Source: Escherichia coli (GTDB taxonomy: Bacteria; Pseudomonadota; Gammaproteobacteria; Enterobacterales; Enterobacteriaceae). Taken from it: a DNA stretch of 64,000 bases. The DNA lies in assembly GCF_030013595.1 (NCBI RefSeq), contig NZ_CP122768.1; one strand, 5' to 3'. Positions 19,485-19,821 of this stretch are shown in pieces. Made by a program: the position numbers and the translations under genes. Numbering within the stretch: the stretch's first letter is position 1; every line of letters starts with the position of its first letter. The notes under the pieces were generated by a model. It had not been told where the DNA came from, did no database searches, and was given only the letters and a program-made list of their open reading frames with translations.

Positions 19485-19821
19485 AGATAAGTCACTTCCT
19501 TCCAGGTCATTATTTTAACTGGTTTTTATAACCAGTCTCATTTTATTAAGAAGGGTAATAACTTGTGCATCTCTTTTGTCGATCATTGATATGGGCAAAG
19601 AAATGCAGCTAAAAAGCTTATACGTTATTTATTTAGAATACACTACGACTTTTAGATTACCATCATACACATTAAGAATAATCCACGGTAATAAGTGATT
19701 AGCATCACAGATTTATCGCGTATATATCATTTTTTTGTGACTTATTTATTAAAGGAATAAGAAAGGAAATTTGAGTTAAAGACAAAGGCGCAGTACAGGC
19801 AGTACTGCGCACAGAGAGGTG

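Follow-up and report, generated by a model that had tools for sequence, protein, structure and literature searches.

Probable promoter and leader region of the O-island 28 giant-adhesin secretion operon in an AT-rich spacer of Escherichia coli

What does a 337-bp block of AT-rich DNA represent when it stands between a core permease gene and a giant-adhesin operon of Escherichia coli? The spacer in question occupies positions 19485-19821 of a 64,000-nucleotide stretch of contig NZ_CP122768.1 (hereafter the window), where the genes are arranged, all on the minus strand, in the order ybaT, spacer, tolC28, siiEA, hlyB28 and hlyD28. A preliminary description had taken it for the promoter region of the operon and also for the junction of a horizontally acquired island whose promoter is silenced by H-NS. 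The locus is O-island 28 (OI-28) of O157:H7, which consists of z0608/tolC28, z0609 and z0615/rtxA28 and rtxB28 (siiEA in the present strain), z0634/hlyB28 and z0635/hlyD28 (PMC12758282) and is followed by cueR. Our analyses make it very probable that the spacer is the promoter and leader region of the OI-28 giant-adhesin secretion operon, native regulatory DNA whose low G+C content is an old property rather than a mark left by recent insertion, and which K-12-type strains lost by one deletion. As the control region of OI-28, the spacer sets the time of expression of a 20-kb adhesin gene, and OI-28 is required for early adherence and gut colonisation in enterohaemorrhagic E. coli O157:H7 and O145:H28 (PMC12758282). 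The promoter role had been established by studies that appeared in 2009, 2010, 2023 and 2025, so this finding in itself adds little; what is added here is the deletion scar, the pattern of conservation, a CRP-like palindrome and a leader predicted to sequester the Shine-Dalgarno (SD) sequence.

The spacer and its mapped promoter

Windowed G+C analysis bore out the abrupt change in composition. The G+C content of the spacer is 32.9%, compared with 54.6% for the whole window, and just 0.19% of all 337-bp stretches in the window have a value of 32.9% or less, the lowest being 29.4% at 19423-19759. The spacer is bounded by the ATG of the tolC-like outer-membrane protein (OMP) gene at 19484, a start that the limits of the open reading frame confirmed, and by the ybaT stop codon, which ends at 19822. 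Its flanks are tolC28 at 51.5% and ybaT at 53.9% G+C; the G+C-rich adhesin gene (siiEA, 60.8%), which had been thought to adjoin it, starts at 18050, 1.4 kb away, and the real neighbour is the OMP gene. The only other place in the window with a 337-bp G+C content as low as that of the spacer is 51691-52310, and a second AT-rich gap (18051-18128, 34.6% G+C) lies between tolC28 and siiEA. A scan of 19300-20000 against Rfam at E ≤ 1 gave zero matches, and the small open reading frames in the spacer are chance-level ones of 21-40 amino acids.

Transcription start sites could be transferred from strain EDL933 of O157:H7, in which positions 579400-580000 align to the window without gaps and with agreeing coding-sequence coordinates. 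Cappable-seq, which captures triphosphate 5' ends, detected a primary start of gene RS02775 at EDL933 579751 in six of eight conditions (PMC10469882 Table S5). This start corresponds to an A at window position 19628 (minus strand), 144 nt before the ATG of tolC28. Its signal rose from 0 in exponential phase to 64.7 in stationary phase in LB, from 4.1 to 53.0 in M9, from 0 to 31.3 in acid and from 2.4 to 9.2 in salt (PMC10469882). A minor start at EDL933 579769 corresponds to 19610 on the same strand. The primary start falls exactly 7 nt past the hexamer TATTCT (19635-19640, minus strand; -12 to -7 from the start), which lies within an invariant block at 19669-19601. BPROM had predicted a -35 element ATGATG, here at 19661-19666 (minus strand), and a -10 element containing TATTCT (PMC12758282); the Cappable-seq start confirms the -10 element that had merely been predicted in that study.

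The reporter and regulatory data from O157:H7 agree with this assignment. The tolC28 upstream region drives lacZ, an activity that depends on rstA, and RstA, which activates with calcium, was enriched there around 6-fold by chromatin immunoprecipitation with quantitative PCR and shifted the region in an electrophoretic mobility assay, its binding being lost once the box TAATTCAAATTACC at -294 to -280 was removed (PMC12758282). The aligned counterpart of this box in the present strain reads TAACTCAAATTTCC (19765-19778, minus strand; -294 to -281 relative to the ATG, -150 to -137 relative to the start). Comparison of the wild type with an rpoS mutant showed 55-fold RpoS dependence for Z0608 and 20-fold for Z0609 (PMC2907692), and on entry into stationary phase ECs0540 and ECs0541 rose by log2 3.5 to 4.1 (PMC2241611). 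In addition, ecs0540-0544 are reported to be activated by PhoB from a promoter upstream of ecs0540, in the form in which Yoshida et al. 2010 (Mol Genet Genomics 284:197) is cited by PMC3978041 and PMC12846084. With reporter activity, RstA binding and a mapped start in the orthologous O157:H7 spacer, the proposal that the OMP-adhesin operon has its promoter region here holds. A further 'downstream antisense' start at EDL933 579617, equivalent to 19762 on the plus strand and directed into ybaT, was recorded in one condition (PMC10469882).

We considered whether tolC28 might lack a significant promoter of its own, its RpoS-dependent expression being read-through from the RpoS- and GadX-controlled glsA-ybaT genes past a leaky terminator. 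The RpoS dependence does form a gradient along the locus (19-fold for ybaS, 70-fold for ybaT, 55-fold for Z0608 and 20-fold for Z0609; PMC2907692), and the U-rich tail CUUUGUCUUU that follows the ybaT hairpin on the ybaT-sense strand is interrupted. The hairpin itself, however, is stable and conserved. It was found exactly where the preliminary description had placed it (gcgcagtac-aggca-gtactgcgc; 19788-19810, minus strand) and has nine pairs, six of them G-C, a 5-nt loop and a folding energy of -16.3 kcal/mol (z = -4.8) that was equalled by none of 200 shuffled sequences, and in E. ruysiae, E. whittamii and Escherichia sp. E1V33 G-U wobbles preserve the pairing. With a stable G+C-rich hairpin past the stop codon and a U-tract behind it, this element has the features of a Rho-independent terminator of ybaT and would be expected to act as one. 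Moreover, the strong primary start lies within the spacer, and the cloned upstream region alone drives lacZ. Read-through as the sole source of tolC28 transcription is thus most improbable; tolC28 has its own stationary-phase promoter.

The position of that promoter was weighed in the same way. On the correct strand, the sigma-70-type match with the highest score (9 of 12 positions) is a proximal one, TGCACA-18-TAAAAT at 19569-19540, which lies in a fully conserved block and would give a short leader. Yet Cappable-seq lists just 579751 and 579769 and none near 19533, O157:H7 reads TAAAAC at the hexamer and so lacks the critical last T while its promoter is still active, and a 1-bp insertion in other species widens the spacing to 19 bp. 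We consider it highly unlikely that this match is the working promoter, and both this candidate and read-through alone were rejected on the Cappable-seq and reporter data in favour of the start at 19628.

The K-12 deletion and the age of the island

The absence of the island from K-12 could be read as the original, empty state of the site, and the junction of the spacer with ybaT as the edge of an insertion of unclear mechanism. Megablast searches and alignments showed instead that the similarity to K-12 sets in at 19794, within the distal arm of the ybaT hairpin, which places the right end of a deletion between 19793 and 19794; on the K-12 side, this junction region is found at 3905-4028 of the K-12 locus. 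The spacer is therefore absent from K-12 as had been supposed, except for its last 28 bp (19794-19821), the sole part that the two have in common. To the left of the junction, K-12 retains around 94 bp that match the hlyD28 3' end but for a deletion of 1 bp, and RefSeq annotates this remnant as a frameshifted pseudogene that lacks the N-terminus and overlaps the start of cueR. The 'empty' site of K-12 is a deletion scar in which the hlyD28 remnant is fused to what is left of the ybaT terminator, its proximal half. Measured in the coordinates of HCP5S3_I2, the deletion extends over around 25.8 kb, from inside hlyD28 to inside the terminator.

This scar is shared widely. A 181-bp probe across the K-12 junction gave a contiguous match in 4458 of 5424 matching genomes; the end of ybaT was matched in 5421 of 5426 complete E. 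coli genomes, the spacer is present in 958, and the island is absent from around 82%. One old deletion, not gain by pathogens, explains why K-12 and those 82% of complete genomes lack the island, and no integrase, insertion sequence (IS) or tRNA is needed to account for the polymorphism in E. coli. None was seen, in agreement with the preliminary description: a tRNA search of 1-30000 found none, and a strain with the same sequence over 19300-20000 has no IS or integrase annotated in RefSeq at the boundary, from cueR to ybaT. The deletion changes the meaning of the 'acquisition' of OI-28 of which a recent study speaks (PMC12758282, 2025), and our literature search found no paper describing the K-12 scar.

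The locus resembles the deletion scars behind presence/absence polymorphisms of O-islands in E. coli in that island-negative strains still carry what remains of the last gene of the island, truncated and frameshifted. It differs in that one breakpoint lies inside a terminator hairpin. The K-12-type deletion took the distal arm of the ybaT terminator, and the K-12 counterpart folds at just -7.8 kcal/mol (z = +1.2) with no hairpin, so that ybaT there has lost its terminator hairpin ahead of cueR. The mapped start of cueR lies 19 nt upstream of the gene in K-12; in EDL933 it is 160 nt upstream and falls within hlyD28 (PMC10469882).

Beyond E. coli, the order copA, glsA, ybaT, spacer, tolC28 and siiEA recurs in Escherichia sp. 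E1V33, E. whittamii and E. ruysiae as well as in two other divergent genomes. Identity to the window at four-fold sites is 0.63-0.69 for glsA and ybaT and 0.61-0.69 for tolC28, and overall nucleotide identity is likewise continuous across the boundary. Synteny and divergence together indicate that the island was already present in the Escherichia lineage when these species separated, and that it has since been inherited together with its flanks.

Several features do favour the edge of a recently acquired AT-rich island with a promoter kept silent by H-NS, among them the A/T tracts of the spacer, its G+C content as the lowest in the window and the absence of the island from 82% of complete E. 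coli genomes. H-NS prefers AT-rich DNA of this kind. In addition, related tolC-adhesin modules are widespread in Enterobacterales and occupy other loci in other genera, with upstream DNA that is always AT-rich (0.24-0.48 G+C); the upstream regions of 27 tolC28 homologues in other genera have no alignable similarity to the spacer, and AT-richness alone is shared. Against recent acquisition stand the K-12 scar, one junction common to 4458 genomes, four other Escherichia lineages that carry the island at this very site and show equal synonymous divergence to its left and right, the boundary at which tRNA, IS and integrase were not found, and the island genes themselves at 51.5% (tolC28) and 60.8% (siiEA) G+C. 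The promoter is also strongly active in stationary-phase laboratory cultures, which does not fit a silenced one, and a scan of the window with the H-NS motif TCGATAAATT at two mismatches returned 64 matches against 44 ± 7 expected, a background level that is uninformative. The literature yielded no chromatin immunoprecipitation or hns-mutant data for the locus, and PMC12758282 makes no mention of H-NS. We therefore regard the recent, H-NS-silenced island as unlikely. The evidence contradicts only the part of this proposal that concerns recent acquisition; H-NS binding is plausible from the AT-richness.

Conservation, the CRP-like palindrome and the leader

If the spacer is old regulatory DNA, parts of it should have changed more slowly than neutral sites. 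We compared eight Escherichia sequences, taking the four-fold-site identity of the flanking genes (0.61-0.69) as the neutral expectation. Identity to the non-coli lineages is 0.69-0.74, near neutral, in the upstream stretch that holds the RstA box (19787-19711), but reaches 0.88-0.90 in the core promoter (19669-19629) and 0.91-0.98 in the leader (19628-19597 and 19576-19485), apart from a loop at 19596-19577 that has been replaced (0.20-0.30). Relative to neutral sites, this pattern points to purifying selection on the core promoter and the structured leader and not on the RstA-box stretch. The RstA box lies in the least conserved stretch and is unrecognisable in other Escherichia species, and the exact 56 bp around it (19745-19800) are shared by three complete genomes only. 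Since this stretch does not appear to be under selection, regulation by RstA may be specific to some lineages.

Between the RstA box and the core promoter, a motif search identified the CRP-like palindrome TGTGA-TGCTAA-TCACT (19694-19709, minus strand), centred at -73.5 from the start at 19628. It matches TGTGA-N6-TCACA at 9 of 10 positions, a score reached by three sites in the window where 0.38 were expected, and across the eight Escherichia sequences its arms are invariant and its inner spacer variable. CRP may act at this palindrome. No CRP-like site was found upstream of the 27 tolC28 homologues in other genera. A near-perfect CRP-type palindrome, TGTGATCTTTATCACA, also occurs at 53038-53053, in an intergenic AT-rich area near 51691-52310.

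The 144-nt 5' leader of tolC28 (19485-19628, minus strand) is predicted to be strongly structured, a 146-nt segment folding at -35.3 kcal/mol compared with -20.2 ± 3.5 kcal/mol in shuffled sequences (z = -4.3). Its first element is a stem-loop (19566-19607, minus strand) with an 11-bp stem, UGCAUUUCUUU paired with AAAGAGAUGCA, that is invariant across species, and a 20-nt loop (19577-19596) that is the replaced segment mentioned above. A predicted long-range helix (19491-19564, minus strand) then pairs AAGUUAUU..CCUUCU (19564-19549) with the SD region GGAAGGAAG (19495-19503) and encloses a small hairpin at 19517-19537. The same structure is predicted in six orthologues, with a mean probability of an unpaired SD sequence of 0.14-0.26. 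None of the predicted pairs is broken in seven sequences, the inner hairpin varying by G-U wobbles alone, and the positions of the long-range anti-SD helix are all invariant. An RNA thermometer was rejected as an explanation, the predicted SD accessibility being flat between 25 and 42 °C. In strain ECNB21-M121, an IS1A copy sits inside the small leader hairpin (at around 19525/19526), between the mapped promoter and tolC28.

As a tentative extension of the promoter-leader reading, on which we place rather limited confidence, the leader (19628-19485) may be a conserved cis-regulatory RNA, with its invariant stem, replaceable loop and anti-SD helix, through which the channel and the adhesin could be gated post-transcriptionally by a small RNA, CsrA or another factor beside RpoS, PhoB and RstA, while a CRP-type regulator at -73.5 could add a carbon signal.

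A number of observations count against the assignment of the spacer as promoter and leader, or against details of it. The functional data all come from O157:H7 and not from this strain. The two spacers are identical at 332 of 337 bases (98.5%) with no gaps, and of the five substitutions relative to EDL933 two fall in the RstA box, which thus differs at 2 of 14 positions, one in a second -10-like hexamer and one in the leader, with none in the -10 element, start site or palindrome. The -35 element is poor, the ATGATG called by BPROM being separated by 20 bp from the -10 hexamer. Scanning the region for consensus promoters gave six sites compared with 4.3 ± 2.2 in shuffled sequence and missed the real promoter. 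Because consensus matches do not exceed the shuffled level, the sequence by itself is no proof of a promoter. The secretion system may be decaying in this strain, given a premature stop in tolC28 (see below). For the leader, compensatory changes were sought in seven sequences and none of the 32 pairs had a double change, only wobble-preserving single ones being seen; conservation of the primary sequence could explain its invariance equally well. Finally, the centre of the palindrome is 1-2 bp off the class I positions (-61.5, -71.5/-72.5, -82.5 and -92.5), and its CTGTGAT half also resembles a half-site of the Pho box.

This last resemblance raises the alternative that CTGTGAT...ATCAC is part of a PhoB site rather than a CRP site, serving a phosphate-starvation promoter whose -10 element would lie at 19680-19675. 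PhoB regulation of ecs0540-0544 is on record, as cited above from secondary sources; CTGTGAT (19710-19704) agrees with CTGTCAT at 6 of 7 positions and is followed by weak half-sites at 11-bp spacing; and a -10-like hexamer (19675-19680, minus strand; TATTCT here and TATTTT in EDL933) stands 12 nt past CTGTGAT-GCTA-ATCACTT. However, the adjoining half-sites match at just 3 of 7 positions, two-half-site scores of 9/14 are frequent (261 in the window), and the invariant inverted arm ATCAC better fits a symmetric dimer. Nor was a start mapped there in the eight Cappable-seq conditions, among which phosphate starvation was not included. The best pair of Pho half-sites, 10/14, lies at 19765-19748, and such scores are common in the window. 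We judge a Pho box at this position to be possible but doubtful.

Returning to the promoter-leader reading, we propose a working model that follows the minus strand in the direction of transcription. Transcription of ybaT would end at the intrinsic terminator (19810-19788), beyond which around 150 bp of fast-evolving A/T-rich DNA would carry the RstA box (19778-19765). The conserved CRP-like palindrome (19709-19694) and the core promoter with its -10 element TATTCT (19640-19635) would follow, and transcripts starting at 19628 would carry the conserved 144-nt leader, the predicted fold of which pairs the ribosome-binding site. According to the O157:H7 work, the inputs would be stationary phase, RpoS (55-fold), RstA with calcium, and PhoB, to which we would add CRP acting on the palindrome and control of translation by way of the leader. 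In this model the island has diverged together with its flanks across Escherichia, and the K-12-type lineage would have lost around 25.8 kb at once.

Operon genes and related systems

In RefSeq, identical or near-identical strains over 19300-20000 show the order ybaT, a TolC-family OMP, the 'BapA-related adhesin SiiEA' (around 20.8 kb), a type I secretion permease/ATPase, an HlyD-family adaptor and cueR, the start of cueR overlapping the stop codon of the adaptor gene. The core gene ybaT (19822-21114, minus strand) is assigned to the APC family of permeases by its open reading frame and by what RefSeq annotates in a strain with the same sequence over 19300-20000.

The TolC-family OMP gene tolC28 (18129-19484, minus strand; open reading frame, RefSeq, Pfam PF02321) has TAG in place of TTG at 18314-18316, which cuts the product to 389 of 451 codons. 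Among 788 complete E. coli genomes with a match, the allele did not occur in any other case; the alternatives are a sequencing error and an inactivating mutation private to this strain. The 5' part of siiEA, which encodes the BapA-related giant adhesin, extends over 3-18050 (minus strand) as 6016 stop-free codons and runs off the window; its orthologues carry the Pfam domains BapA_N and Big_13. The operon may also have internal promoters. Cappable-seq starts were recorded at EDL933 581361 and 581395, just within the 5' end of siiEA, and at 601588 near hlyB28 (PMC10469882).

Compared with the tolC28 region of O157:H7 (PMC12758282; PMC10469882), the present locus has the same chromosomal position, -10 element, start-site context, CRP-like palindrome, leader and downstream operon. 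O157:H7 differs in the five spacer substitutions, in a tolC28 that does not have the premature stop of this strain, and in siiEA, which is annotated there as interrupted and treated as two genes in PMC12758282. A third state of the locus occurs in E. coli SCPM-O-B-8794 (5797-9978 of its locus), in which an internal deletion fuses the spacer to distal tolC28 sequence; the greater part of siiEA is gone, with hlyD28 and cueR kept.

Among related systems, the region upstream of siiABCDEF in Salmonella pathogenicity island 4 (SPI-4) is AT-rich, repressed by H-NS and activated through HilA and SprB. The likeness to SPI-4 lies in AT-rich regulatory DNA ahead of an operon for the type I secretion of a giant adhesin with immunoglobulin-like repeats, a kinship that the NCBI name siiEA reflects; a literature search on the names siiCA, siiDA, siiEA and siiFA found nothing relevant. 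The two systems are likened by arrangement and name only. The gene order here is OMP, adhesin, ABC transporter and membrane fusion protein without siiA or siiB, the chromosomal site is another one, and the documented regulators are RpoS, PhoB and RstA, unlike those of SPI-4. The operons of BapA and LapA type (bapABCD in Salmonella and lapA-lapEBC in Pseudomonas) are a further parallel, BapA_N and many Big_13 repeats being shared by the adhesin orthologues of the present locus.

In another enterobacterial genome, which encodes a 76%-identical TolC28 homologue, the module (967-6350 of its contig) lies directly downstream of dosC/dosP-like genes for protoglobin-GGDEF and PAS-GGDEF-EAL proteins. 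This neighbourhood hints at control linked to cyclic di-GMP in the lineage concerned; the E. coli locus, unlike that relative, has no adjoining GGDEF or EAL genes. Elsewhere, the closest complete genome, that of the related but distinct strain HCP5S3_I2, carries IS1397 between ybaL and gsk (32552-33900 of its locus), an element that is absent at 31763-31894 of the window.

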